Part shown: positions 8,010 to 64,000 of the stretch, one piece after another | How positions within the stretch are numbered: position 1 is the first letter of the stretch | Layout of the letters: every line of letters starts with the position of its first letter | NCBI GenBank assembly: GCA_900320225.1 | Contig: ONRL01000015.1 | Coordinates: forward strand, 24,383-88,382 | Direction: 5' to 3' | DNA from: an uncultured Lentisphaerota bacterium | GTDB lineage: Bacteria > Verrucomicrobiota > Kiritimatiellia > RFP12 > UBA1067 | Length of the DNA: 64,000 nt | The notes under the pieces: generated by a model | The model's database searches: none | What the model was told of the DNA's origin: nothing | What the model saw: the letters and a program-made list of their open reading frames with translations, nothing else | Program-made: the position numbers and the translations under genes

Positions 8010-8633
8010 ATGATGAAGATTGCCTTGACAGGCGGCATCGCCTGCGGCAAGAGCCTGTTTGCCAAGTTCCTTCGGGAACTTGGCATTCATGTTCTTGACG
8101 CTGACGACGTCGTCCATGAACTCGAAGCGCCCGGTGGCGCAGCCGTGTCGGCCATCGTTGCGCGCTTCGGCTCGGATGTCCTCGCGCCTGATGGCGGGAT
8201 CGACCGCGCGGCATTGGCCGCGCGCGTTTTTTCGGATCCTGCCGCCCGCGTCGACCTCGAGGCAATTGTTTTCCCATTGGTGCGTTCGCGCCTTCGGGAA
8301 AGCGGCACTCCTGCCGCTTCTCCTTCTCCCTCCTTCACCATTCACGTAATTCCTCTCCTTTTTGAGTCGCATTGGGAATCGGATTATGATATACTTCTCT
8401 GCATCGCCTCCCCGGTGGATTTGCAAATCAGCCGGATGATGCAGTCACGCGGTTATTCGCGTGCGCACGCGGAGGCACGTCTCGCGGCTCAATGGCCCGT
8501 GTCCGAAAAAGCGGCTCGATGCCATTACACCGTGATGAACGACTCCACACCCGAACACCTGAGGGACGAAGCCCAACGGCTCGTTGCCTGGTTGAAGGAG
8601 CAAATAGAGAATGAGTGCAGAAGAAAAGAATGA
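8010..8633 (+). CDS. coaE: dephospho-CoA kinase
   Basis: P-loop [20 protein letters not shown] motif; ~200 aa. Contains an in-frame palindromic insert (see repeat 8296-8330). Confidence 0.85.
8296..8330 (+). repeat. family-B palindromic element (GAAAGCGGCActccTGCCGCTTC) inserted in frame within coaE (encodes [12 protein letters not shown])
   Basis: same palindrome occurs intergenically at 41895-41925 and 46994-47025. Confidence 0.7.
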
Positions 8634-10491
8634 TCAGACCGCAGCGGAAGCCGCCGTGTCCACCGCAGGGAAAACCGCGAAGAAGGTTGCGACGACCAAG
8701 AAGAAACGTGGCCGTCCCACAAAGGCGGAGTTGGCTGCGCGTGCGGCGGGGACGCCTTCGCCCTCGTTGGAGAGCCCTCAACCGACAGCAAGTGTGCCGC
8801 CACAAGAATCCGCACCGGCTCCAACGGAGACAACGGGCACCCCGCCCGCTGCGGCCGCGACACGCGCGGCCTCGCCGGAGACCGCTCAACCGGCAGCAAG
8901 CGTACAACCGAAAGAATCCGTGCCGGCTTCGACTGAGACAACGGGCACCCCGCCCGCTGCGGCCGCGACAAGCGAGGCTCTCCCAAAAGTTTCTGCGCCT
9001 GCACAACCCACCGTTTCGCCTCCTGGCGAACAGCCGATGAGCAATCGGCAGCGGCGTCGTATGGAATGGCTTGCGCGCGCCGCGCAGCGTAACGGGAACC
9101 GGCCGAACTTCAAGGGCGGCAAGCATGTCCAGATGTTGCCGCAGGGCAACCGACGCCCGGCCTTTGAGGTTCCGCAGAATCTTCCGCCCCCCGTTCCCGC
9201 CGTGCCGCGCAACCCCGACTTGCCGGAGTACAACCTTCAGGACATCCATTCCTGGGACAACGGCGAGATCGTCGCGAAGATGTGGCCGGACGCGAACCCC
9301 GAGGACCTCGGCGCGATGAAGCGCCACGAAATCATCTTCGGTGCGATCCGCAGCTATCTCAACCGCGGCGGCGCCGTAATGGCCACGGGCTGCCTGGAAG
9401 TAGTGAAGGAAGGCTACGGCTTCCTCCGCAGCGCGAAGACGAACTTCCTCGCCTGCCCCGAAGACGTGTTCATCCCTCAGCAGCAGATCCGCCGCCACGC
9501 GCTCCGCACGGGCGACACCGTGGTGGGCCCGATCCGCGACCCGCGCGACAAGGACCGTTTCTTCGCGCTCGGCAACGTCGTGTCGGTGAACGGCAAGACG
9601 CCCAGCGAGGCGGCGCGAATCGTCCACTTCGAAAACCTCGTGCCGACATTCCCCACGCGCCGCATCATCCTTGAGACGACGCCGGGTGAATTCTCGATGC
9701 GCGTGGTCGATCTCTTTACGCCAATCGGCTTCGGGCAGCGCGGTCTCATCGTCGCGCCGCCGCGCGTCGGCAAGACGGTCCTTCTGCAGAAGATGGCGAA
9801 CGCCATCACGAAGAACCATCCTGACGCCGTCCTCATCGTGCTGCTCATCGACGAGCGTCCCGAGGAAGTGACGGACATGCAGCGCAACACGAAGGCGATG
9901 GTCCTCTCCTCCACGTTCGACGAGGAGCCGCAGCACCACGTGAACGTGGCGGAGATGGTGATCGAGATGTCGCGCCGCCAGGTGGAGAACGGCAAGGACG
10001 TGGTGATCTTGCTCGACTCTATCACGCGCCTCGCCCGCGCCTATAACACGGTGCAGCCGCACTCAGGCAAGATTCTCACCGGCGGCGTGGACGCCCTTGC
10101 CCTGCACCGTCCGAAGCGCTTCTTCGGCGCGGCGCGCAACATCGAGGGCGGCGGTTCGCTCACGATCATCGCCACCGGCCTGGTGGACACCGGTTCGCGT
10201 ATGGACGAGGTGATCTTCGAGGAGTTCAAGGGTACGGGCAACATGGAGTTGTGCCTCGACCGGGGCCTCGCCGACCGGCGCATCTTCCCGGCGATCGACA
10301 TCGACAAGTCCGGCACGCGCAAGGAGGATCTCCTGCTCGCGCCGCTGGAGCTGGAGAAGACCTGGGCGTTGCGCCGCGCGTTGTCCGACGCCGGTCCCGA
10401 ACGTGCCATGCAGACCGTGCTCGCCGGCATGAAGAAGTACAAGTCCAACCCCGAGTTCCTCCTTTCAATTGACACGAAGAACATCTACTAA
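8611..10491 (+). CDS. rho: transcription termination factor Rho with ~200-aa low-complexity N-terminal extension
   Basis: C-terminal RecA-like Rho core ([50 protein letters not shown]...DERPEEV). The Pro/Ala/Thr-rich N-terminus contains a ~105-nt direct duplication (8776-8990). Confidence 0.9.
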
Positions 10492-32555: not shown

Positions 32556-32641
32556 TGGTGCCGGAGGAGGGACTCGAACCCTCACGTACTTGCGTACGGC
32601 AGATTTTGAGTCTGCTGCGGCTGCCATTACGCCACTCCGGC
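32556..32641 (-). tRNA. tRNA-Leu (anticodon CAA), class II with long variable arm, CCA encoded
   Basis: reverse complement GCCGGAGTGGCGTAATGGCAGCCGCAGCAGACTCAAAATCTGCCGTACGCAAGTACGTGAGGGTTCGAGTCCCTCCTCCGGCACCA; 7-bp acceptor stem, anticodon loop CTCAAAA, T-loop GGTTCGAGTCC. Confidence 0.85.
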
Positions 32642-32653
32642 AAGACCTCTGCA

Positions 32654-32727
32654 TGGAGCGGGCGAAGGGAATCGAACCCTCGTGGCCAGCTTGGAAGGCT
32701 GGAACTCTGCCATTGAGTTACGCCCGC
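32654..32727 (-). tRNA. tRNA-Gly (anticodon UCC), CCA encoded
   Basis: reverse complement GCGGGCGTAACTCAATGGCAGAGTTCCAGCCTTCCAAGCTGGCCACGAGGGTTCGATTCCCTTCGCCCGCTCCA; anticodon loop CTTCCAA. Confidence 0.85.
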
Positions 32728-44612: not shown

Positions 44613-44624
44613 TTCCCCCGCGCG

Positions 44625-44790
44625 CGGTGGGGCGAGGCGTCCCGCCGAGCCGCCCACCATCACCCCGGGAGGGTCGCGCTCCGTCGCGACCACATGGATC
44701 GCCGCCATCTTGGCGGCGCACCCACCCACCCACCACCCCCCAAAAAACCAACTAACTCACCAACCAACCAACTAACCAACAAATTTCGCG
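44625..44790. repeat. BIME-like cluster (GGCGAGGCGTC palindrome, REP-A, palindrome E) followed by CCCA/CCAA microsatellite
   Basis: ccccgggagggtcgcgctccgtcgcgaccac; gccgccatcttggcggcg; cccacccacccaccacc...ccaaccaaccaactaaccaac. Confidence 0.85.
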
Positions 44791-46899: not shown

Positions 46900-47170
46900 T
46901 CTACGCGGAGGGGCGAGGCGTCTCGCCGAGCTGCCCGGTAGGGCGGTCGCCCCGCGACCGCCGCCCGGGAGGGCCGCGCTTGTCGCGGTCTTTCGGGGAA
47001 GCGGCACTCATGCCGCTTCACTTGGTCAGGCCCGCTCGCCGAGCGGGCCGCCGCCTAACTGGGAAAGCCGCCATCTTGGCGGCGCACCCACCAACCAACC
47101 AACTAACCAACCACCCACTAACCAACCAACCAACCAACAAACCAACAAACCAACCAACCAACTACTCGCT
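46900..47170. repeat. largest BIME-like cluster (six palindromic units incl. REP-A, REP-B, palindrome E) followed by ~80-nt CCAACC microsatellite; marks the core/defence-island boundary
   Basis: ggcgaggcgtctcgcc; ggcggtcgccccgcgaccgcc; cccgggagggccgcgcttgtcgcggtc; gaagcggcactcatgccgcttc; ggcccgctcgccgagcgggcc; gccgccatcttggcggcg; (ccaacc)n. Confidence 0.85.
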
Positions 47171-54361: not shown

Positions 54362-56485
54362 ATGATCAATAAGGCAGATTTCTCGGTATGGCTGTCAAGT
54401 GGCAACAAAGAGAACAGCGGCAAAGCCCGCAGTTATTTGACTGCGCTTAACGACATAGATCAAATCCTTCATTCACTCGTCAAGGAGTTTGACTCGCCAA
54501 GTGTTTTTGAGTTGCCAAAGCATTCGCTTGAGACACTTCGCGAATTCTTCATAAAGGAATCAAAGAATTCAGCATCGGTAATATTGGGGATGCAGGGACT
54601 TCATGGTAGTTCGTATCTCAAAAATCGCTTTTACTCCGCAAGTGTCAGCAAGCTGTTGGACTATCTATTAGAGAAGCAGGGAACAGAATCGATTCGTTTT
54701 TCTGGATTTCCAGATCACCTCTCCATTGCGCTGAGGGTCTTTGCCGAAAAGCGGTATGCGGCAGAATGGCAGGACAAGACGAGCAAGGATGGCTATCAGA
54801 ATATCTACGACATGGCAGCGATGACGCCGGAGCAGATTGCCGCAGGGTCGCTTGACGATTTCTACAATGATTTCCTGTTGAAGATCTGGGCGTTCAAGAA
54901 TGGCGGCAGTCGGCGATATGGACAGCTTGACGAGGCAGGTAGAAAAGCCTATCGGCAGTTCGTTGTTGATTTGAAGACGCAGCTCAAGAGCTTTGACTCC
55001 TACTTCCCGCCCAATACGCAATGTCCCGATGGCATGGGCGTGGGCGTGCTTACGGAGTTGATGATGCGCTTCTGGCCGAATTCGTGTTGCAACTACAACG
55101 CAAGTCTCATCCACGAGGCACTTGTTACGTTACACATGGCGGAAGGGGACTTCGTCTGGCCGAAAACGCCGTCCGTCTATCAGGATTTCATGGGCAAGTG
55201 TGCGACTATCCTGCTCAAGATGGAGCAGATGAAACTGCCGCGCCGTTCCGATCCCGGCAATGACGAGCCGCCGGACTACATCACCGTGAACGAGTTTCTG
55301 TGGTTCGTCCGCGAGTACAAGGATTTAATTCAGGAGGAAGTCATGAGCAAGAAGATGAAAACCGATGCGCCTACGAAGTATGACGAAGGCAAGCGCAAAA
55401 CACTCGCGTTCGATCCTAATTCAAAGGATGACGAACTTCTTCTGCGTCTGCTTGCCGCGCTTCGCGCCAAGCCGTTCGCCATCCTCGCCGGACACTCCGG
55501 CACTGGCAAGAGCCGCTATGTGAAGAAGCTTGCGTACATGACCTGCAACATGGACGAGCTGCGTAACGAAAAGCAGCTGCCGGGCAACTATCTTCTCCTT
55601 CAGGTCAAGCCCAACTGGCACGATTCCACCGAACTGCTTGGTTTCCGCAACGCGATGGACGGCGACCGCTACCAGAAGACCAAGCTTATCGAATTCCTTT
55701 TCCGTGCCTATCAGTTCAAGGACACGCCATTCTTCCTCTGCCTTGACGAGATGAACCTTGCGCCGGTTGAACAGTATTTTGCCGAGTTTTTGAGTTCGAT
55801 GGAGTCTGCGGAACCTGTTCCGCTTAATGACATCACCGTGAAGGACGACAATCTTTTCGATCTTGGTTGCGAATGGAAAGCCGCTTACGATTACTTGGCG
55901 GCGAACGGCTTCTCCATCCCGAAGAATCTGTTCATCGTCGGTACAGTCAACATGGACGAGACGACCAACCAGTTCTCGCGCAAGGTTCTTGACCGTGCCT
56001 TCACGATAGAGATGACGGATGTCGACTTTAAGAACTACGGACATGTCACCCAGCCGAGTTATGCCGACACCATCGAGGAAGAAAAGATACAGGCGCTTCT
56101 CAATGGGGAGAAGTTCGTGGATAAGCTTGATGCCGAGGATGTAGCTGAGGGCGCGCCTCTTGTCAAGGTACAGAAAGCCCTGGAGCCAACTGCGTTTGCG
56201 GTCGCATATCGCTTCGCAAACGAATACACGCTTCTGAAAAGGGCGATTGCGTGTTTCGACAAGGACAGTACGATGAAGCTGGACGCGCTTGACCAGGCCG
56301 TTCTAATGAAGATCCTGCCGCGTGTTGCGGGCGAAAAGGATTACATTGAGAAGGTCTATGGCAAGAACGATAACGAGGGTCTTCGGAAAGCGCTTGAGGG
56401 GAAGTCTGTCTCGCTTAAGAAAATTGCCGAGATCATGAAACGCGCCAATGACATGAACGCCCAGTACATCACGTTCTGGCCATGA
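54362..56485 (+). CDS. mcrB: McrB-like AAA+ GTPase subunit (type IV methyl-dependent restriction), with long N-terminal domain
   Basis: FAILAGHSGTGKSRYV (Walker A), FFLCLDEMNLAPVEQYFAEF (McrB-type Walker B), NLFIVGTVNMDETT (sensor). Confidence 0.7.
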   Translation: MINKADFSVWLSSGNKENSGKARSYLTALNDIDQILHSLVKEFDSPSVFELPKHSLETLREFFIKESKNSASVILGMQGLHGSSYLKNRFYSASVSKLLDYLLEKQGTESIRFSGFPDHLSIALRVFAEKRYAAEWQDKTSKDGYQNIYDMAAMTPEQIAAGSLDDFYNDFLLKIWAFKNGGSRRYGQLDEAGRKAYRQFVVDLKTQLKSFDSYFPPNTQCPDGMGVGVLTELMMRFWPNSCCNYNASLIHEALVTLHMAEGDFVWPKTPSVYQDFMGKCATILLKMEQMKLPRRSDPGNDEPPDYITVNEFLWFVREYKDLIQEEVMSKKMKTDAPTKYDEGKRKTLAFDPNSKDDELLLRLLAALRAKPFAILAGHSGTGKSRYVKKLAYMTCNMDELRNEKQLPGNYLLLQVKPNWHDSTELLGFRNAMDGDRYQKTKLIEFLFRAYQFKDTPFFLCLDEMNLAPVEQYFAEFLSSMESAEPVPLNDITVKDDNLFDLGCEWKAAYDYLAANGFSIPKNLFIVGTVNMDETTNQFSRKVLDRAFTIEMTDVDFKNYGHVTQPSYADTIEEEKIQALLNGEKFVDKLDAEDVAEGAPLVKVQKALEPTAFAVAYRFANEYTLLKRAIACFDKDSTMKLDALDQAVLMKILPRVAGEKDYIEKVYGKNDNEGLRKALEGKSVSLKKIAEIMKRANDMNAQYITFWP

Positions 56486-56504
56486 TCGGAGACTTCCTGC
56501 GGTA

Positions 56505-58589
56505 ATGTCTGAAACTGTCTACACATATACGCATGGCGATGTCTTTACGCTGAAGGTGATGGGCCGAAACGCCGGCCGATACGAGGCGTACTGCAAGCGC
56601 ATCGGCGTGGAAGAAGGCTCTGACGAGAGCCGTGTGGACATATCTTCTCCCAACGGAGTGGAGCAGATGGAGCCGCCCTTCTTCGAGACACGCTATTTCT
56701 TGCGGTGTGACTTCAAAGATGCGTCTATCCGCGACGCAGTGTTCTTCCATAAGATGGCCAGCGTTTCGGAGGCGTTCGACTTTGACGGCAAAACGCTCGT
56801 GGGTGTACTTGATTTCGTGAACGCTCCGGGCAAGTTCCACTTTGAGATAGTCTGGTATCGCGGCGGCGTTCGCGAATCGGCGGCATTTGACTGGATAGTT
56901 GTGTCTGAGAAGCTTAACGTCCAAAGTGATTACAAAGAAATCGTCACGACTATCGAGGAGAATGCGCCTGGGTTGGTGCGGGCGTTTCTTGCGAAGTCAA
57001 AGGGCGCGGCGGGGCTTATCCGTCGCGACGACACCAATGACGCAATTTGGGCGGATATTTTCAACGAGATCGGCGACCGTTATCAGAGAGCGTGCGAGTG
57101 GATCGTGAACAGGCCGCACCTCAAGTACATTTCGGAAGTCGAGTATCGGCGAGCAGGACTGGTCAAGCGATGGACGCCGGGCTTGGTCAACAGTTATGCG
57201 ACCATGGGCAAGGGGCGGCGAGCGGTTGCTCTTTTCAGGACGGAACACATATCGCCGCAGGTTGATACGGTAGAGAATAGGTTCGTCAAGTTCACCTTGC
57301 GGAGTGTCGTTGCAAGGTTGGAAAAATTCGCGTCTGTCTGTGAGGGGCACAAGACGGTCAGCGAGGTGTTCGTAAAGGACCTGCGGGCGCGGGCGGCGAG
57401 ACTTGCCAAGACGATGCGCAATCCTTTTTTCGTCGGCGTGGGACATTTCACGGGTTTGCGTCAAGAGAGCATGGTTCTGCAGCGGCGGCAGGGATATGCG
57501 GACATCTATGCGACATGGTTGATGCTCAAGCATACTCTCGATACAACGCAAACGGGTCTGGCAGTTGGACACAGGCCGATCAGCGCGCTCTACGAGTTCT
57601 GGTGTTTTCTGCGCATGGCAGATTTGCTGGAGAAGGACTTCGGATTTGGACGCCCGGAAGGTATGATAGACGGGGCTAAGGTCTATGACGACCTCTTCGA
57701 AGAACCGGACCCTGACAAGATTGACACCACGACGCTCTCTGCACTGACGTACAAGTTTCCCGAAAAAGATGGGGTTTCCATTAAACTACTGTATCAGCAG
57801 AACTACGGCAAGGAGACTGTCGATGGAGATTTGGCTTACTATAATCCGCAACGGCCTGACATTGTGCTAGTGATTGAACGCGGGAAGGATGTGTTCACTT
57901 ATCTGTTCGACGCCAAATACCGCATTGATGAGCGTGGTGGGAAGGATGCTTCCCCAGCTGAGCCGATCAACGACATGCATCGTTACAGAGATGCGATTTT
58001 GTATCGTTCACAAGAGGATGACCGTAAGTTGTCTCGGCAGATCGTTGGCGCGTATGTGCTCTATCCCGGCCGGCCTCTGCCACAGAGCTACAACTACGCG
58101 GAACTGATCAAAAACGAGAACATCGGCGCCATCCCTCTTCTGCCAGGCGAGGATGGCGGGAGCGCACTAAAGTCATTCATTGGCGAAATTCTCAGTAAGA
58201 AGACCCCGGAATCGCACCTTTCCGCCGACATCCCGACTCGCGGCACCACGGTGGTCGTCGGGAAGGACGAGGGCGTATTTCTTGAAAATGAAGTCGTGTA
58301 CGGGACATACGCGGCAGGGCAGCTTGATTGGATTCTTGAGAAGCACATGTACAATCTGCCGGTGGAAGAGTCTGAGAAGTTTGGCATCGTGGATATGGCG
58401 ACGGCCGAGCAGAAGAAAATTCTTTATCTTGTTGCTTTTCGTGGAACCGGTAGTCACCGTGTTTTCAGGCTTCTGCCCGGTGTGCGTAAAGTGACGCCGA
58501 ATGACTTGTGGAAAATGGGATATCCTAGGCAATGTCGCTATGACGAATACTGGTTGTTTAAGTTAGGCGAAGAACTAGGGCTAAGGTAG
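56505..58589 (+). CDS. mcrC: McrC-like partner nuclease (PD-(D/E)xK), enlarged 694-aa variant
   Basis: PD-(D/E)xK core RPDIVLVIE...LFDAKYR near C-terminus; 20-nt gap after McrB-like gene. Confidence 0.6.
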   Translation: MSETVYTYTHGDVFTLKVMGRNAGRYEAYCKRIGVEEGSDESRVDISSPNGVEQMEPPFFETRYFLRCDFKDASIRDAVFFHKMASVSEAFDFDGKTLVGVLDFVNAPGKFHFEIVWYRGGVRESAAFDWIVVSEKLNVQSDYKEIVTTIEENAPGLVRAFLAKSKGAAGLIRRDDTNDAIWADIFNEIGDRYQRACEWIVNRPHLKYISEVEYRRAGLVKRWTPGLVNSYATMGKGRRAVALFRTEHISPQVDTVENRFVKFTLRSVVARLEKFASVCEGHKTVSEVFVKDLRARAARLAKTMRNPFFVGVGHFTGLRQESMVLQRRQGYADIYATWLMLKHTLDTTQTGLAVGHRPISALYEFWCFLRMADLLEKDFGFGRPEGMIDGAKVYDDLFEEPDPDKIDTTTLSALTYKFPEKDGVSIKLLYQQNYGKETVDGDLAYYNPQRPDIVLVIERGKDVFTYLFDAKYRIDERGGKDASPAEPINDMHRYRDAILYRSQEDDRKLSRQIVGAYVLYPGRPLPQSYNYAELIKNENIGAIPLLPGEDGGSALKSFIGEILSKKTPESHLSADIPTRGTTVVVGKDEGVFLENEVVYGTYAAGQLDWILEKHMYNLPVEESEKFGIVDMATAEQKKILYLVAFRGTGSHRVFRLLPGVRKVTPNDLWKMGYPRQCRYDEYWLFKLGEELGLR

Positions 58590-58606
58590 TGGGAGATTGA
58601 GGCGCC

Positions 58607-58684
58607 ATGGGACTCGTCAAGACCAGAAGACTTGTGGCAATGCGGAAGCAGTTACGCCCCCTGTCAGGGTTGCAGCAAGAATGA
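58607..58684 (+). CDS. small ORF (25 aa, MGLVKTRRLVAMRKQLRPLSGLQQE), paralog of 61961-62104
   Basis: GGGAG RBS; first 15 residues conserved with the second copy despite synonymous DNA divergence. Confidence 0.35.
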   Translation: MGLVKTRRLVAMRKQLRPLSGLQQE

Positions 58685-58731
58685 GTATTTTCGTGGCAAA
58701 GAAGTAACATCTAACCTAACCCGGAGGCCTT

Positions 58732-60630
58732 ATGAAAATCATTTATACATACATTGCAGATTTCCCGCCTTTCAAGAATGCGGAAATGAATTTCGTATCA
58801 GATTATAGATGTAATTTCAATGGTGAGAAGTTAAGAATAAAACATTCGAAAGTCTTGCCCAAAGGGTTCTTTTCGCATGATGACCGATTGTGTGTGTCCG
58901 CAGTAGTGGGCCCAAATGGAGCGGGAAAGACTTCTCTCATCCGTTTCTTGAGATCACTCATGTATCCTGTGCAAAAGCAAGAATTCGTTCTTGTTTTGGA
59001 GGCAAAAGGAGATATAATTGTTTACTATAACTTAAACGGCGGAAGAATCCAAGTTGAGGGAGAGGGATGTAAAGTAAAATCCGTCAATAATCGTTACGAG
59101 AATACTGAATTTATGCAGGATGCCATTTCGACTTGCTTCAATGTTGTGTACTATTCGCCGCACTATTCGTTGTCTGTACCTTTCCGATTTACAAATGACG
59201 ATTTTGTAAACCTCTCTACGACATATCTTTTGAACAATACTATGGATGGTTCTTCTAGTCAGGCCAGATGTGTCAGTTCGTCAATCTTTATTGCAGAAGA
59301 ATTTTATCGTCTTGTCCGTTTCTATGAAGCATGTAAAGATATGTCTAATGTCGTTGAGCAAGTTCCGAAGGGTGTCGCATTCGTACCAGACACTCAAACA
59401 TTGGAATTTATTTTTCAATATTATTCTGAACTGCTTAATAAGGAGAAAGTTCGTATCAAGGAGATTCGTAAAGGTATTGTTGTTGGTGAAAGGGAACTTA
59501 CTAATAATGAAATGCAGCGTATAGAGACGATGCTGTCTTTTCTTGGATTTGATTTTGACGATGCCTTTATGTGTGTGTTCCAGTGTTTTGTGGCGATTAT
59601 TTGGCAAAGGAAGATATTCAATGATAAGTTTCTTAATGGAAAGGAATACGGATGTCTTTTGCTTGATTTTTGTGCGTCATTAATTGATTCAGACAATATG
59701 GACAAAAGAACCATTCGTAGTAAAGTCATTAACTTTTTGAAATTGAACAAGCCAGAACAAATTGGGAAGCTAGAATATTTGAATGAGGATGCAAGTAGTA
59801 TTAAGGAAGAAAATCCTTTATTCGCATTTTTTAAAATCCTTAGTGACTTAACATCTCACAGGGGTGGCGAAGGAGAAGTTTACCTGCAAATGCCGTGGAA
59901 CAAATTAATGAAGAACCTAGAGTTTGTAAAAGAACTGTATGGGTGCACGACTGCGATCGGGGCATTTGTTGAGTGGCGTTTTGATCCACCAATGTCATCT
60001 GGTCAATATACTTTGTATTCTTTCTATGCTCGCCTATACGAGTATTTCGTTAATATTAGAGACTGTGTTGCTGGGTACGACGGAAGTGACTTCTCGCATG
60101 AATGGGCTTTTCACATGGAGTCTGGCTGGATTGTGATACTGGATGAAGTAGAGGTGACTCTACACCCAGAATGGCAACGGACGATAGTATCGAATGTTTT
60201 GCATGTGTTTAAGGAATTCTTTAAGGGGTTTAATGTACACCTAATCTTTGCAACGCATTCGCCGATATTGCTGTCGGATGTGCCGGCTGGCAATGTGGTA
60301 TTACTTGATAAAGGCAGGGTGATTAACGGACAAACTAAAGACGGAGAGGAATTCAAGCCTTTCGGCTTTGGTGCGAACATTTATGACTTGTATCGCCATT
60401 CGTTCTTTCTAAAGAATGGCGCCGTAGGGTTATTCGCGCGAAAGAAGATAGATGATGTGGTAAGAAAAATATGCGAGTTACTTGAACCATCGAAGAAGAG
60501 CAAAAAGGAACCCGAAGATAAGTTTAATTATGATGAAGCGAACAAGATTTCCAATTTGGTTGCAGATCCTATTGTCAGGAAATATCTCAAGTCTGTAATA
60601 CCATTAGCGAAGGAACGGGCAAATGCGTAA
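58732..60630 (+). CDS. ABC/SMC-like AAA ATPase (AAA_15/AAA_21 type), Septu PtuA-like
   Basis: Walker A VVGPNGAGKTSL, Walker B/D-loop IVILDEVEVTLHPEWQ, H-loop ATHSP; low GC. Confidence 0.6.
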   Translation: MKIIYTYIADFPPFKNAEMNFVSDYRCNFNGEKLRIKHSKVLPKGFFSHDDRLCVSAVVGPNGAGKTSLIRFLRSLMYPVQKQEFVLVLEAKGDIIVYYNLNGGRIQVEGEGCKVKSVNNRYENTEFMQDAISTCFNVVYYSPHYSLSVPFRFTNDDFVNLSTTYLLNNTMDGSSSQARCVSSSIFIAEEFYRLVRFYEACKDMSNVVEQVPKGVAFVPDTQTLEFIFQYYSELLNKEKVRIKEIRKGIVVGERELTNNEMQRIETMLSFLGFDFDDAFMCVFQCFVAIIWQRKIFNDKFLNGKEYGCLLLDFCASLIDSDNMDKRTIRSKVINFLKLNKPEQIGKLEYLNEDASSIKEENPLFAFFKILSDLTSHRGGEGEVYLQMPWNKLMKNLEFVKELYGCTTAIGAFVEWRFDPPMSSGQYTLYSFYARLYEYFVNIRDCVAGYDGSDFSHEWAFHMESGWIVILDEVEVTLHPEWQRTIVSNVLHVFKEFFKGFNVHLIFATHSPILLSDVPAGNVVLLDKGRVINGQTKDGEEFKPFGFGANIYDLYRHSFFLKNGAVGLFARKKIDDVVRKICELLEPSKKSKKEPEDKFNYDEANKISNLVADPIVRKYLKSVIPLAKERANA

Positions 60631-61786
60631 ACTCGTGATAAATGATGACGATCTAGAGCTGCATAAGGACACCTATTCAACCCCAATCGAGGATATCCTT
60701 GGTTTGCTTGCCAAAGGGGATACTGTGAAGAAAGTTGGGAAAGCGGAAGACGGGAAACTGACAGACATCGATTGGCTATCGGCCAAAACCCCGGAGGAAC
60801 AAGATTTCTATAAAGGAATTCTTGAAAAGTACCAGGAAAAGAACTTTCTTACGACGGAGTTGGACGGCCTAGTTAAATTATGCAAAGAGTTTGACAAGCT
60901 GTACGAACCTTTTCAGAAGGAAAAGCTCGTAGAAATCAAAAATAATTTAAAGGAGATATTTAACTATGAAAAATTTGGAGCAGGACAAAAGCTGGTGGTA
61001 AAAACGATAAATAATGTTCAGTGTTATTCATGGACCAATTGCACCGAATCTTGGAGTGCTTGGCATTTTATCAAACACCTGAATGTCAGAACGTGTTGTT
61101 ATTGTAACGCCGAAACTATTTTCGCATTGTTGCTAAACCAGCCATGTCCTGGAGTTGAAGAAAAACGTTCAAATAGTAAGGCGAAGAAAGAAGATTACAA
61201 GAGGTCTGCTCTTGACCATTATATTGGTCATTCAGAGTATCCGGCTTTTGGATTGTCATTGTATAACCTTGTGCCAGCTTGCACTAGATGCAACACGAAT
61301 ATTCGAGGTGCAAAAGTCTTGGATTATCAAAGCAATATTCATCCATACGAAGAGTCCTTTGATGATTTCTTCAGGTTTAAATACTTCGTGAAGAAGACAG
61401 GCGTGGATTTCCAAGCGTTAACCGAAGACGATATAGGTCTAATTGTTTCGCAACTTGATAAGGACGGTCACATTATAAACATAGATAAAAGAGGAATGAA
61501 CACAGCGAAGTTCTTTCATTTGAAAGAAGTGTATAATCAACTCCATCGTAGCGAAGCAATTGACACGATTCGAAGATATACATTGATTCCAGAAGCACGG
61601 CGAAAAGAACTTGAACAACACTATCCAAATATTGGGCGGGTTGTCCTAGAGCGAATGCTTTGGGGAGTGGATTGTGATCGTAATAATATCAATCAATACC
61701 GCCTAGGTAAGTTGACGCTTGATTTGTTGGAACAGTTGGGTGCGACTTCGCAAGACGAACTTGATCGGATTTGGCAAAAATGGTGA
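60623..61786 (+). CDS. HNH endonuclease domain protein, Septu PtuB-like partner
   Basis: RTCCYCN...DHYIGHSEYP...YNLVPACTRCN (HNH/His-Me finger with two Cys pairs); 8-nt overlap with the ATPase gene. Confidence 0.55.
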   Translation: MRKLVINDDDLELHKDTYSTPIEDILGLLAKGDTVKKVGKAEDGKLTDIDWLSAKTPEEQDFYKGILEKYQEKNFLTTELDGLVKLCKEFDKLYEPFQKEKLVEIKNNLKEIFNYEKFGAGQKLVVKTINNVQCYSWTNCTESWSAWHFIKHLNVRTCCYCNAETIFALLLNQPCPGVEEKRSNSKAKKEDYKRSALDHYIGHSEYPAFGLSLYNLVPACTRCNTNIRGAKVLDYQSNIHPYEESFDDFFRFKYFVKKTGVDFQALTEDDIGLIVSQLDKDGHIINIDKRGMNTAKFFHLKEVYNQLHRSEAIDTIRRYTLIPEARRKELEQHYPNIGRVVLERMLWGVDCDRNNINQYRLGKLTLDLLEQLGATSQDELDRIWQKW

Positions 61787-61960
61787 GCTAACAGGTACGA
61801 GTCGCAAGCCCCATTGGTGGAGGAGCCCGCGAGGGGTGATCTCATTGGTGAGTAGGAGTGGTGGATTAGTCATGGCCATGCAACAGAAAGGCAACGAGAG
61901 ACGCAGAGGTAGCCCTCGTTGATATGGTAACACTGACACAGTAACGCGAGAGGTGAGATC

Positions 61961-62104
61961 ATGGGACTCGTGAAAACAAGAAGGCTGGCGGCGATGCAGA
62001 AGCAGCAGCGCGCGAAGGCGGGGATGAAGCCGCCGGCACCAAAACCTACGCGAATGAATGGTTGCAGGAACGCAACGAATTTCGAGTCAATGAAACGCGG
62101 TTAG
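61961..62104 (+). CDS. small ORF (47 aa, MGLVKTRRLAAMQKQQRAKAGMKPPAPKPTRMNGCRNATNFESMKRG), paralog of 58607-58684
   Basis: GAGAGGTGAG RBS; sits 13 nt upstream of the DUF262-HNH gene. Confidence 0.35.
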   Translation: MGLVKTRRLAAMQKQQRAKAGMKPPAPKPTRMNGCRNATNFESMKRG

Positions 62105-62117
62105 AAGGAGCAATGGC

Positions 62118-63458
62118 ATGAATCAAACTGTTCAACCGATCAATTCTCGTCCGATGACAAGGGTAGAATTCAATACGTTCACCATTCGCACGTTGGTCGG
62201 ATGGTACGAGCGGGGTTTGCTGAATCTTGAACCGGAGTTTCAGAGAAAGTCGGTCTGGAAGAAGCAGCAGCGATCTAGGTTGATGAATTCCATTCTGCAT
62301 GGCTATCCACTTCCGAATGTGGCGATCTACAAACGGTATGATGAGAAGCTCCACTGTGTCCGTTACGATGTGATTGACGGCAAGCAGCGCCTAGAGTCCA
62401 TCTTGCTTTTTCTTGGAAAACTTAGAGGCGAAGATTCGCGTTTTGAGGCGGCGTTTACAGATTGGCGTGACGGAAGGGAATATACCGTCAAGCAGTCTTG
62501 GCGAGACATGTGCCCCAAAAACCAGGGTCAAATCATGAGATTCAAAATACCGGCCGTCTGGGTTCAGGGTGAGTTGCACGAGATACGTGAGATGTTTGTG
62601 CGAATCAATTCAACCGGCAAAGCACTGACTCATCAGGAAGTCCGCAACGCGAAGTACTTCAGTTCTGAATTCCTTCAGCGCATGATTCCCCTTGCCAGAC
62701 AGCTAAAGCGCAACTTCTTAGAAATGGGTGTCCTTTCTGAGAGTGAGATTCTTCGGATGAAGGATGTGGAATTTTGTTCGGAGCTGGTCCTTTCAGTCCT
62801 GCACGGAAACGTTCTCGACAAGAAACGCGCGCTTGATCAGTCAATGACGGATGGGTTCGTTGACATGCGGAGACTTCCAAAGGCGATACGAGACGTGAAG
62901 GCGACGATCCGGTATCTGGCCAAGCTGCTGCCCGACATTCGCGCAACGCGGTTCAAGAAACTTGCGGACTTCTACACGCTCGTGGTCCTGTTCGCGCGTT
63001 ACTTGCGAGAGGGGAAGACGCTGCAGAATGCTAAGGCGAAACGCGAGGCGGGATATCTGCTTGAGCGGTTCGGCGTTCTGGCGGACAAGGCGTACAAGTC
63101 GATCAGCGAATTCGACCGAGAGGCGGAGATTGATCCAAATGCGTTGACGTACATCCAGACAGTTCGCGAGGGCGGCGACACTGCGGCACACCGTCGCGAG
63201 CGAGAGAGGATTGTGGAAAACATCTTGGAGAATGTCTTTGACCAGAAAGACCGCCATCGCACGTTCACAGAAGTTCAGCGGCGAATCATCTGGGCGAATA
63301 CGAAGCGCAAGAAGTGTTACAGGTGCGGGCGCGAGTTGAAATGGTCGAACTTCGAGATCGACCATGTCTATCCTTACAGCAAGGGCGGCAAGACAACGAT
63401 AGAGAACAGTGCAATCATCTGCAAGCGCTGCAATTGCAAGAAAGGCGCAAAGGTTTGA
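62118..63458 (+). CDS. DUF262 (ParB/GmrS-like NTPase) + C-terminal HNH/DUF1524-like nuclease: GmrSD/BrxU-family type IV restriction enzyme
   Basis: LEPEFQRKSVW and DGKQRLESI (DUF262 motifs); CYRCGRELKWSNFEIDHVYPYSKGGKTTIENSAIICKRCN (HNH). Confidence 0.7.
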   Translation: MNQTVQPINSRPMTRVEFNTFTIRTLVGWYERGLLNLEPEFQRKSVWKKQQRSRLMNSILHGYPLPNVAIYKRYDEKLHCVRYDVIDGKQRLESILLFLGKLRGEDSRFEAAFTDWRDGREYTVKQSWRDMCPKNQGQIMRFKIPAVWVQGELHEIREMFVRINSTGKALTHQEVRNAKYFSSEFLQRMIPLARQLKRNFLEMGVLSESEILRMKDVEFCSELVLSVLHGNVLDKKRALDQSMTDGFVDMRRLPKAIRDVKATIRYLAKLLPDIRATRFKKLADFYTLVVLFARYLREGKTLQNAKAKREAGYLLERFGVLADKAYKSISEFDREAEIDPNALTYIQTVREGGDTAAHRRERERIVENILENVFDQKDRHRTFTEVQRRIIWANTKRKKCYRCGRELKWSNFEIDHVYPYSKGGKTTIENSAIICKRCNCKKGAKV

Positions 63459-63515: not shown

Positions 63516-64000
63516 ATGAAGGTAATTCTGAGCAGAAAAGGTTTTGACAGTGTCAATGGTAAGATGCCAAGTGCCATAATGCCGAACGGCGATGTCGTTT
63601 CTTTCCCGATTCCTTCAGGTGACAAGACCACATTTGACGACTTACGATATAGGGATGTCTCTTATAAGCAAATATTGGATTCTCTTGTACAAAAGAAATC
63701 TGGATGCAGGGATATTCCTTGGCGACATTGTCACATTGATCCGGATCTGGATAAGACGCGTTGGAAGAAAACACCCCATCATAATTGGAAGCCGGCTTTC
63801 GGCCCGTCATGGAACGTATGGCACTATCTGAAAGAGACGGTTGGGATTCAAAAGAATGATGTATTTCTTTTCTTTGGGACATTTCACTTTTTAACCCAGA
63901 AGGCGCCTAGAGGTTTCGAGTACGCCGCTCGAACCGGCGATTTCTTTCATGACTCGGACTTGCATCTCATCTGGGGATATTTGCAAGTCGGGAACATCAT
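63516..64000 (+). CDS. partial ORF (5' part only, runs off window); N-terminus MKVILSRKGFDSVNGKMPSAIMPNG resembles the Nmad3 (nucleotide-modification-associated domain 3) family, tentative
   Basis: AAAGGAGGG RBS 7 nt upstream; open for 161 codons to window end; family assignment from memory of the Nmad3 N-terminal signature, unverified. Confidence 0.35.
   Translation, partial: MKVILSRKGFDSVNGKMPSAIMPNGDVVSFPIPSGDKTTFDDLRYRDVSYKQILDSLVQKKSGCRDIPWRHCHIDPDLDKTRWKKTPHHNWKPAFGPSWNVWHYLKETVGIQKNDVFLFFGTFHFLTQKAPRGFEYAARTGDFFHDSDLHLIWGYLQVGNI

Follow-up and report, generated by a model that had tools for sequence, protein, structure and literature searches.

Defence islands tend to be described as loose clusters, and detailed knowledge of module exchange and co-expression is limited to integrons and a few hotspots between core genes. 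The short integron open reading frames (ORFs) ORF-11 and ORF-18, located at attI1, have tails supplied by the cassette and drive downstream translation by re-initiation or coupling (PMC8876359). Defence hotspots between conserved genes are represented by the core defence hotspots of Pseudomonas aeruginosa (PMC10250203) and by the P2/P4 hotspots (PMC9122126). Here we describe a family of small ORFs, exemplified by ORF1 and ORF2 in a 64,000-nt stretch of DNA from an uncultured Lentisphaerota bacterium (contig ONRL01000015.1 of assembly GCA_900320225.1, positions 24,383 to 88,382; hereafter the window). The family has a nearly invariant head, MGLVKTRRLAAMQKQQRAKAGMKPP, and unrelated tails; its copies lie at the junctions of defence and toxin-antitoxin (TA) cassettes, and alternative cassettes are joined within the head.

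The small ORFs and their conserved head

ORF1 (58607-58684, + strand) encodes 25 aa, MGLVKTRRLVAMRKQLRPLSGLQQE, and ORF2 (61961-62104, + strand) encodes 47 aa, MGLVKTRRLAAMQKQQRAKAGMKPPAPKPTRMNGCRNATNFESMKRG. A reading of the window made from its letters alone (the sequence-only reading) had reported the two ORFs, a ribosome-binding site for each and a shared start, and all of this holds: ORF1 is preceded by a Shine-Dalgarno (SD)-like purine run at 58591-58602 (+; GGGAG and GAGG, read directly), ORF2 by the SD GAGAGGTGA at 61948-61956 (+), and 13 of their first 15 residues are identical, the two being paralogues of one family. Over the first 15 codons, the two ORFs agree at 7 and show 6 synonymous and 2 non-synonymous differences (V10A, R13Q). 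The similarity begins at the ATG, the DNA 5' of the two ORFs being unalignable, and is weaker beyond codon 15, reaching about codon 23; a repeat search gives a DNA repeat of 71 nt at 73% identity that starts at the C preceding the ATG. Codons 1-25 of ORF2 (61961-62035, +) form the block that defines the family, and the remainder (62036-62104, +; APKPTRMNGCRNATNFESMKRG) is a variable tail that belongs to the downstream cassette. ORF1 is a truncated member in which head residues 1-15 are kept and the rest is replaced; its domain score against the family hidden Markov model is 35.5 bits. Its orthologue in the related strain L001 is more complete (MGLVKARRQVAMQRQRAKAVMKPPVKK...), and the conserved part of ORF1 and its homology to L001 end at the same point. 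Judged from these alignments, ORF1 is a diverged, recombinant and partly replaced copy, and this accounts for its match to ORF2 being limited to the first 15 residues. Scans of the 64 kb window at the DNA and profile levels found no third copy.

The 47-aa ORF2 peptide retrieved more than 1000 predicted proteins (1027), those listed being 33-79 aa long, and a profile search of 1.84 billion cluster representatives returned 367 family clusters (50% identity, E ≤ 1e-3), nearly all of 33-143 aa and matched from the first residue. None of the 367 clusters shows a fusion with a longer domain. The best 150 of the 367 are short except at two lengths, 238 and 282 aa, which are read-through fusions: the long members (233-284 aa) run in frame into a signal-peptide protein, and those of 105 aa and 119 aa read through into a 76-aa membrane protein or a Cys-rich protein. 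A scan of one genome per species yielded 54 loci in about 40 species-level metagenome-assembled genomes (MAGs). The hosts are essentially all gut or rumen Kiritimatiellae MAGs, some of them labelled Verrucomicrobia or Lentisphaerae and a few apparently mis-binned. The genome and metagenome search that the sequence-only reading had proposed has found many further occurrences, and what these share is a conserved peptide rather than a stretch of DNA with disrupted frames.

The family is absent from the databases consulted: relatives were not found in the viral contigs of IMG/VR, NCBIfam gives no match at E ≤ 10 and Rfam none, a profile search of the PDB returned just a spurious zinc-finger linker (E 0.46), and the precomputed Pfam assignment is blank for all 120 matches listed. 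The literature on the motif, on Kiritimatiellae defence cassettes and on leader peptides of defence systems yielded nothing relevant to the family. Resemblances of the head to a Tat signal, ribosomal protein bS22, a ClpX N-degron and an N-myristoylation motif were not adopted; no hydrophobic region follows the RR in the head, and the head has no NCBIfam match. Several origins were considered and set aside. Chance or a gene-caller artefact is ruled out by family size together with the codon tests given below. The leftover 5' end of a longer gene, duplicated when an island integrated, is ruled out as well, as is the N-terminus of a transposase, since the 367 clusters contain no full-length gene that begins in this way. 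A phage origin is rejected for lack of relatives in IMG/VR.

Conservation starts with the coding sequence. Of 2532 pairs of copies compared, 1746 have the onset of similarity precisely at the ATG, and the similarity extends 30-80 nt into the ORF. The motif found 5' of ORF2 (class A, described below) is missing from 71 of 103 distinct upstream sequences; a purine-rich SD lies at the right distance wherever these were read or aligned, and is present even where the 5' DNA is unrelated. The 38 distinct uninterrupted heads vary mainly at third codon positions, with variability of 0.054/0.033/0.217 at positions 1/2/3. Different families use different Leu codons (CTG/TTG/TTA) and Arg codons (AGA/CGA/CGG/CGT), and multi-nucleotide synonymous switches are seen (AGG to CGA, CTG to TTA, CGC to AGG). 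Because the copies had been retrieved via peptide patterns, the test was repeated with position-blind blastn using the DNA consensus and secondary copies that had not been used for retrieval; in these retrieval-independent, DNA-level copies, mismatches by codon position number 33/33/105 (p = 7e-14). Changes counted within nine tail families number 38 synonymous vs 9 non-synonymous in the head (codons 1-28) and 16 vs 24 in the tails of the same genes (head vs tail, Fisher p = 1.4e-4), and the tails appear to evolve nearly neutrally. Purifying selection acts at the peptide level and is confined to the head; the codon-position and head-versus-tail tests, both unbiased, bear out the selection that the sequence-only reading had suspected.

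By this codon pattern, the family reads as a translated mini-gene with the 25-residue head as its functional part. In the AlphaFold2 model, residues 3-19 form a single helix (predicted local distance difference test, 84-90) and the rest is disordered; basic residues make up 7 of the 25 in the head. An antisense gene was considered and rejected: the wobble-aligned antisense frame is open but less conserved, and the position-1 Leu and Arg switches of the sense frame would be non-synonymous in it. A structured RNA or riboswitch was rejected as well, with no Rfam match, folds like those of shuffles and no consensus structure: single-sequence fold z-scores are -0.41 and +1.53, the junctions being no more stable than shuffles, and RNAalifold gives -5.1 kcal/mol with no covariation and no consensus fold.

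The DNA around the start codon has features of its own. In the ORF2 type (class A), a motif of about 45-65 nt with tandem TTGAYACAGT repeats precedes the ATG; its consensus, ...CCCCGTTGACACAGTAGGATTGAYACAGTAGCGCGAGAGGTGAKGTC-ATG, is common to 32 distinct copies, and at ORF2 it occupies 61918-61960 (+; GTTGATATGGTAACACTGACACAGTAACGCGAGAGGTGAGATC) and includes the SD. Other copies have their own extended -10 promoter (TTGGTAnAAT) about 22 nt upstream, and others directly abut the stop of an NgoFVII-like gene; 5' of ORF2, a promoter scan gave only a weak CTGACA-18-GATCAT match. The consensus start of the head, ATG GGA CTT GTG AAG ACA AGA AGR, is A-rich, and GC is 44% in the first 27 nt and 71% in the rest of the head. 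In the 38 heads, the preferred codons are GGA at codon 2 (35/38), CTT at codon 3 (25/38) and ACA at codon 6 (17/38), followed by AGA at codon 7 (34/38) and AGA or AGG at codon 8 (29/38). Their shares within the synonymous sets of this genome's core genes are 8% for GGA, 8% for CTT, 5% for ACA, 2% for AGA and 3% for AGG; R17 of the head is encoded by the common codons CGC and CGG. These features fit either an initiation region that is unstructured and highly efficient or else a deliberate rare Arg pair.

Cassette junctions and exchange

In 70 sequences (the window and 69 related loci, designated by L numbers), 118 of 118 DNA hits are co-oriented with the seed copy and are therefore oriented like the flanking genes. 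The neighbours on both sides are mostly defence or TA genes: NERD, AAA_14/DUF4143, AbiEi/AbiEii, NgoFVII/PLD, DUF2357+PDDEXK_7 (McrC), NYN and GmrSD, and further ResIII, HsdR, methyltransferases, a Schlafen-type helicase, YafQ, RadC, KAP and Fic. At L013, seven copies (interrupted ones included) lie within 7 kb, each before a one- or two-gene unit, and the median spacing of successive copies is 1.8 kb. A copy usually starts within 60 nt of the preceding stop; of 85 distinct copies, 53% end no more than 35 nt before the next start or overlap it, with ATGA overlaps at L005 and L060. In the window, 47 nt separate the ORF1 stop from the start of an ATPase gene at 58732 and 13 nt the ORF2 stop from a GmrSD_N+HNH gene at 62118, in agreement with the close spacing first reported. 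The attachment to different defence modules, noticed for these two copies, extends to many defence and TA cassettes. A leader in front of every defence cassette is not general, the window's island of more than 20 kb having only two copies; some family copies adjoin genes with no evident defence function, and some possess a promoter of their own.

Exchange was analysed by pairwise comparison of ±600 nt around the copies. In 18 pairs only the upstream flank is alike, and similarity ends +20 to +92 nt inside the ORF; in 35 pairs only the downstream flank and the tail are alike, and similarity ends 0-47 nt before the ATG. Between the window and L001, 97% DNA identity over 56067-58651 ends at codon 15 of ORF1, and 86% identity over 60238-62052 ends at about codon 30 of ORF2; past ORF2, the window has GmrSD and L001 has AbiEi/AbiEii, NERD and AAA_14, each again behind a copy. 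The tail designated P0060 always precedes the same 76-aa membrane protein, the upstream island being different (CoiA, NgoFVII and others), and the tail P0015 always precedes NERD, with a giant helicase operon, a group II intron or AAA_14 upstream. Alternative cassettes are joined within the head of the junction ORF, and the module-mobilisation signature that the sequence-only reading had named among its options gains direct support: related strains are alike on only one side of a copy, and the breakpoint falls inside the conserved block or at its edge. Between the two shared blocks, the window ATPase has 39% protein identity to the L001 allele, its N-terminal part being unalignable as DNA while the flanks are 86-97% identical; at 58651-60238, either the ATPase allele has been replaced or the N-terminal two-thirds of a defence ATPase is diversifying very fast.

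Head DNA identity is higher within a locus (0.918) than between loci (0.843; p = 5e-8). No IntI tyrosine recombinase was found in the window at 40-64 kb and no integrase or resolvase in the gene tables of 20+ contigs with ±10 kb flanks, and Phage_integrase and Resolvase are not among the top families of 119 ORFs neighbouring the copies. The mobile-element genes near copies are only IS110, group II introns and one weak Y1-transposase hit. That hit lies in L074; in L074-L076 a group II intron reverse transcriptase is found 200 nt 5' of the small ORF, and in L070-L073 an IS110 element sits inside the NERD gene just 3' of the junction.

Some heads are interrupted by palindromic elements. A family of 30-nt imperfect palindromes, TCCNCCTTCGCCAAGGCTACGGNGGA, with compensatory changes in the stem, is inserted after head nt 38, 45 or 55 (L035:8001, L038:1746, L042:382, L039:4613 and 11053, L019:193, L052:4525, L012:7334, L034:298, L045:5815); it always adds exactly 10 codons, is nested in another element at L015:5793, and looks like a repetitive extragenic palindrome (REP) or miniature inverted-repeat transposable element (MITE). 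A 66-nt element follows head nt 30 in both orientations (L043:8001, L059:8001 and L054:2595 vs L053:8001 and L057:3296), of which one leaves the frame open and the other brings a TAG stop. Most palindromic insertions in the head keep the frame open, which is consistent with the idea that translation through the junction matters; as proof of frame selection, the in-frame hairpins are weakened, since lengths of 30 and 66 nt, both multiples of three, are intrinsic to the elements. In interrupted copies the first 12-15 codons are still conserved, with synonymous variation, and the N-terminal part is therefore the most constrained.

Other repeats occur next to the copies. Several truncated heads are followed by a perfect 34-nt palindrome, GGTACGTCACATATTCGAATATGTGACGTACC (L013:2293-2330, L013:6659, L044:4359; upstream in L019:3769), and others by a triple TGTTGCCA repeat and then a TGGTATAAT-type promoter; the GGTACGTCACATATTCGAATATGTGACGTACC and TGTTGCCA stretches may be operator-plus-promoter modules of the next cassette. 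An interspersed repeat, CCACCGCATTTATATAAATCCGGTGG then CCTGCGGCGGATTTGCCGCGG, lies 5' of TTGGTAnAAT promoters (L060:9903-9950, 10430-10450). Many family tails contain ...PPHLYKSGGKPAADLPR...; such recurrent tail motifs are not selected peptide sequence, because several junction ORFs read through the CCACCGCATTTATATAAATCCGGTGG/CCTGCGGCGGATTTGCCGCGG repeat. The 76-aa protein, a single-pass membrane protein (MKKWLISVCGLAAVLIVVLAVF...WRECKYDAKE...), recurs with the family (L060:10156-10386, L070:9620-9937 and equivalents): it follows the small ORF directly with an ATGA overlap in some loci and is elsewhere the in-frame continuation of a head that breaks off after residue 14. In L005 and L066, a 111-aa protein is the equivalent partner. 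Neither the 76-aa nor the 111-aa protein has a family match.

The window itself is chromosomal, with genes for Rho, UvrA, PurL, RNase Y, LeuRS and type II secretion. All identified protein genes of the 64 kb are on the + strand, and the sole minus-strand genes are those for tRNA-Leu(CAA) and tRNA-Gly(UCC) at 32556-32727. From about 43 kb onward, GC drops from ~0.6 to 0.37-0.55, and the genes past this point include HipBA, a DUF4062 protein, a DrmMII-like methylase, an McrBC-like pair, PDC-M62, GmrSD and Nmad3; this region is a defence island, which runs on past the window end. The neighbour 5' of ORF1 is a DUF2357+PDDEXK_7 (McrC-like) gene (56505-58589, +; Pfam, PADLOC), syntenic and 97% identical in L001, L002 and L009, and its partner is an AAA_5 gene (54362-56485, +; PADLOC PDC-M26A). 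The cassette after ORF1 encodes a 632-aa AAA_21/AAA_15 ATPase (58732-60630, +; Pfam; PADLOC PDC-M62A, 3.4e-62) and, from an overlapping gene, a 387-aa HNH-like protein (60623-61786, +; PADLOC PDC-M62B, 2.2e-47). It has the order that defines the Septu-like PDC-M62, an AAA_15/21 ATPase and then an HNH-type partner, and represents the PADLOC candidate system PDC-M62A/B, matches to PtuA/PtuB being weaker. ORF2 is followed by an SD, AAGGAG (62105-62110, +), and by its GmrSD_N+HNH gene (62118-63458, +; Pfam; PADLOC NsnA/GmrSD-like); next comes a gene for Nmad3 (nucleotide modification associated domain 3; 63516-64000), which has no junction ORF in front.

Two other junctions of this island carry a different module, in which a GC hairpin, GCCGCCATCTTGGCGGC, is followed by a G-free, C/A-rich tract of about 65 nt, CACCCACCCACC...CCAACCAACCAAC (44696-44783 and 47062-47161; also 44623-44655 / 46904-46936). 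A C/A-rich, G-free composition is typical of Rho-utilisation sites. The module suggests Rho-dependent termination between some cassettes, in contrast to the translated junction ORFs elsewhere. The Rho gene of the window (8611-10491) encodes a 626-aa product with a long N-terminal extension.

Proposed ribosome loading and homology, and rival explanations

Our leading proposal, to which we assign a probability of roughly 0.45, is that of a junction leader ORF with two functions: ribosomes would be loaded on it at the boundaries of cassettes, and its coding block would also provide portable homology for exchange. Its own SD, and sometimes its own extended -10 promoter, would recruit ribosomes very efficiently at each junction and thereby keep the inter-cassette RNA translated; about half of the copies would deliver terminating ribosomes onto or near the next start, by coupling or re-initiation. 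The conserved direct repeats of 75-120 bp would give homology for the deletion, capture and swapping of cassettes by general recombination, a RecA-type process that would need no dedicated integrase, and the tail would simply run on into whatever DNA follows. The head peptide would have a further, sequence-specific role. It may act through the nascent chain or through pausing, as the tandem pair of the rarest Arg codons, the 7 basic residues and Pro-Pro would hint, or by means of binding through its short basic helix. We infer ribosome loading, coupling, RecA-type recombination and any activity of the peptide. A shared regulatory element, which the sequence-only reading had also entertained, is plausible in view of the strong SD, the rare-codon, A-rich start and the 53% of stops within 35 nt of the next start. 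Its suggestion of an antitoxin-like mini-protein fares badly, with almost neutral tails, no functional tracking of cassette type and no recurring toxin partner.

Several observations weigh against the leader proposal. Copies lie at just two of about a dozen junctions in the window's island, and 47% of copies stop 60-800 nt before the next gene, often with an intervening TGGTATAAT-type promoter. The downstream genes inspected have their own SD (window 62105-62110, L005, L060), and translational coupling is therefore not obviously required. The breakpoints fit equally well a site-specific recombination at a site masked by the conserved block, and synonymous divergence reduces the homology available for recombination. 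Persisting insertions at codons 13-19 would break the predicted helix, which disfavours a strict structural role of the whole head, and in integron ORF-11 amino-acid substitutions had little effect (PMC8876359). Loading and homology-based exchange do not in themselves account for the amino-acid conservation, and a peptide-specific role must therefore exist.

That role could be carried out in trans, by a small protein whose basic helix binds RNA, DNA, the ribosome, RNA polymerase or Rho. We consider it somewhat unlikely that the head is such a diffusible regulator of the island, for example an antiterminator or anti-silencer, with its many copies due to hitch-hiking with cassettes. The purifying selection on amino acids, the irrelevance of the tails, the AlphaFold2 helix at residues 3-19 with 7/25 basic head residues and the roughly half of copies that are not near a next start would all suit it, but a diffusible factor needs neither copies at many junctions nor strict co-orientation. 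The head has what we take to be a likeness to the arginine-rich motifs of the lambda and P22 N proteins, with KTRR as in P22 N and with K14, Q15, K19 and A20 aligning ungapped with lambda N; the likeness is weak and without statistical support. N proteins need NusA- and RNA-polymerase-binding regions; the tails here hold no conserved second domain, and there is no domain fusion among the 367 clusters. The absence of a Pfam, NCBIfam or PDB family match, of a recurrent boxB-like hairpin and of the family from phage contigs speaks against action in trans as well, as does the persistence under selection of heads that bear insertions or are truncated to 12-15 aa.

The peptide could instead act in cis as a sensing leader, pausing within the head reporting the state of translation (tRNA-Arg(UCU) supply, EF-P or phage takeover) and gating transcription or translation of the downstream defence cassette, a possibility that we regard as distinctly unlikely. 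The supply of tRNA-Arg(UCU) is altered by many phages, and the rare codons AGA and AGG (2% and 3% of core Arg codons) fill codons 7-8 while R17 uses common ones, although such A-rich codons may merely keep the initiation region unstructured. Pausing would come from the tandem rare Arg codons, the dense positive charge and Pro-Pro at 24-25; the AGA-AGR pair and Pro-Pro are the only signs of stalling in the sequence. The conserved peptide is about as long as the exit tunnel, yet P24 (30/38) and P25 (32/38) are among the least conserved head positions, whereas known arrest peptides are most constrained close to the peptidyl-transferase centre. Several copies are the first cistron after a promoter of their own, and one leader before unrelated defence modules would give common control; against this, many copies are distant from the next gene, no alternative RNA structures or SD-sequestering hairpins were found, and we know of no match of the head to SecM, TnaC, Erm or RAPP motifs. 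A peptide that combined the two functions, encoding a common sensor or switch (a nascent chain acting in cis, a rare-codon gate) that would read, for instance, tRNA-Arg(UCU) supply, EF-P or ribosome status in infected cells and turn on whole banks of unrelated defence cassettes at once, and serving as an integrase-free recombination anchor for their exchange between strains, would have no known counterpart, and we hold it to be doubtful to a similar degree.

Two further explanations are largely excluded. A purely DNA-level element, such as an attC- or att-like site or the end of a mobile element with an ORF that is open by accident, would account for a direct repeat at cassette boundaries with breakpoints inside it, for the conserved non-coding motif of about 45 nt with tandem TTGAYACAGT just 5' of class-A copies, and for the clustering of IS110, group II introns and small palindromes at junctions, as at integron attC sites. 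It is largely refuted by the codon analysis and very improbable: the third-position and synonymous excess in unbiased tests is confined to the head, conservation runs from the ATG behind an SD of varying sequence and without a conserved fold, every copy stays open for 20 codons or more, the junction motif GTTGAYA departs from the attC core GTTRRRY, and no integrase occurs in the neighbourhoods examined. Least probable of all is the precursor of a bacteriocin or of a ribosomally synthesised and post-translationally modified peptide, in which a conserved N-terminal leader precedes a hypervariable C-terminal core. The leader, the variable C-terminus and the many paralogues per genome have that look, but maturation, export or immunity genes do not recur, the neighbours being nucleases, ATPases and TA genes; the near-neutral tails often translate palindromes or the initiation region of the next gene, or are fused to it, and the leader is strongly basic and lacks known leader motifs.

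Comparison with described systems

The closest parallel to the junction ORFs is found in integrons. Like the short ORFs at attI1 (ORF-11, ORF-18, ORF-17) and the attC ORFs, they have their own SD, span a junction and keep a constant N-terminus; their arrays are co-oriented, and the tail travels with the downstream cassette. Integron attC sites are targeted by group IIC introns and IS1111 elements, and IS110/IS1111-type elements and group II introns are likewise found at the junctions described here. Unlike in integrons, no IntI or attC-type folded sites were found, the junction motif being GTTGAYACAGT... as opposed to RYYYAAC/GTTRRRY cores, and integron identity was rejected for lack of IntI and attC in the data examined. 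The family ORF occurs at many junctions and not at one attI site, its 25-residue head is, unlike ORF-11, under strong amino-acid selection, and, unlike integron ORFs, many copies have their own promoter and the downstream genes usually have their own SD.

Other systems share single traits with the family. As in defence hotspots and in the 'minimal mobile elements' of Neisseria, alternative cassettes occupy one position and are exchanged via conserved flanks; here, in contrast, the conserved flank is a selected mini-ORF of 75-120 bp that is repeated within the island, making many exchangeable units. Orphan cassettes of the polymorphic toxins Rhs and CdiA, and silent pilin cassettes, similarly use a short conserved coding segment as recombination homology, with the boundary inside the ORF. 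Unlike the Rhs/CdiA orphan cassettes, the family has no full-length master gene among the 367 clusters, each copy has its own SD and start, the tail is near-neutral and the true cargo consists of separate downstream genes. With leader and arrest peptides (TnaC, SecM, Erm leaders, toiL) the family shares a short same-strand upstream ORF of exit-tunnel length, rare codons and Pro-Pro; it differs from them in having no alternative RNA structures or arrest motif, in that the C-terminal end of the head is least conserved, and in placing one leader before hundreds of unrelated genes. A short N-terminal basic helix, as predicted, recalls lambdoid N, unlike which the family has no NusA- or RNA polymerase-binding regions, no boxB/nut hairpin, no phage context and no profile similarity.

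The family is undescribed and widespread within its clade, and it lacks the features that define membership in each of the closest known systems. It represents a strongly selected small protein of about 45 aa without a description in annotation pipelines or family databases, a repeated translated mini-gene apparently used as a cassette joint across one bacterial class. It offers a search handle for an uncultured gut and rumen lineage, since genes after MGLVKTRRLAAMQKQQRAKAGMKPP in Kiritimatiellae are candidate mobile defence or TA cassettes and the at least 367 tails can serve as their catalogue. It also offers a possible integrase-free route for cassette shuffling and a candidate common element for expression or sensing among unrelated immune systems. 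Set beside integrons, core-gene-flanked hotspots, orphan cassettes and leader peptides, it points to a new organisation, and perhaps expression, of immune-gene banks.

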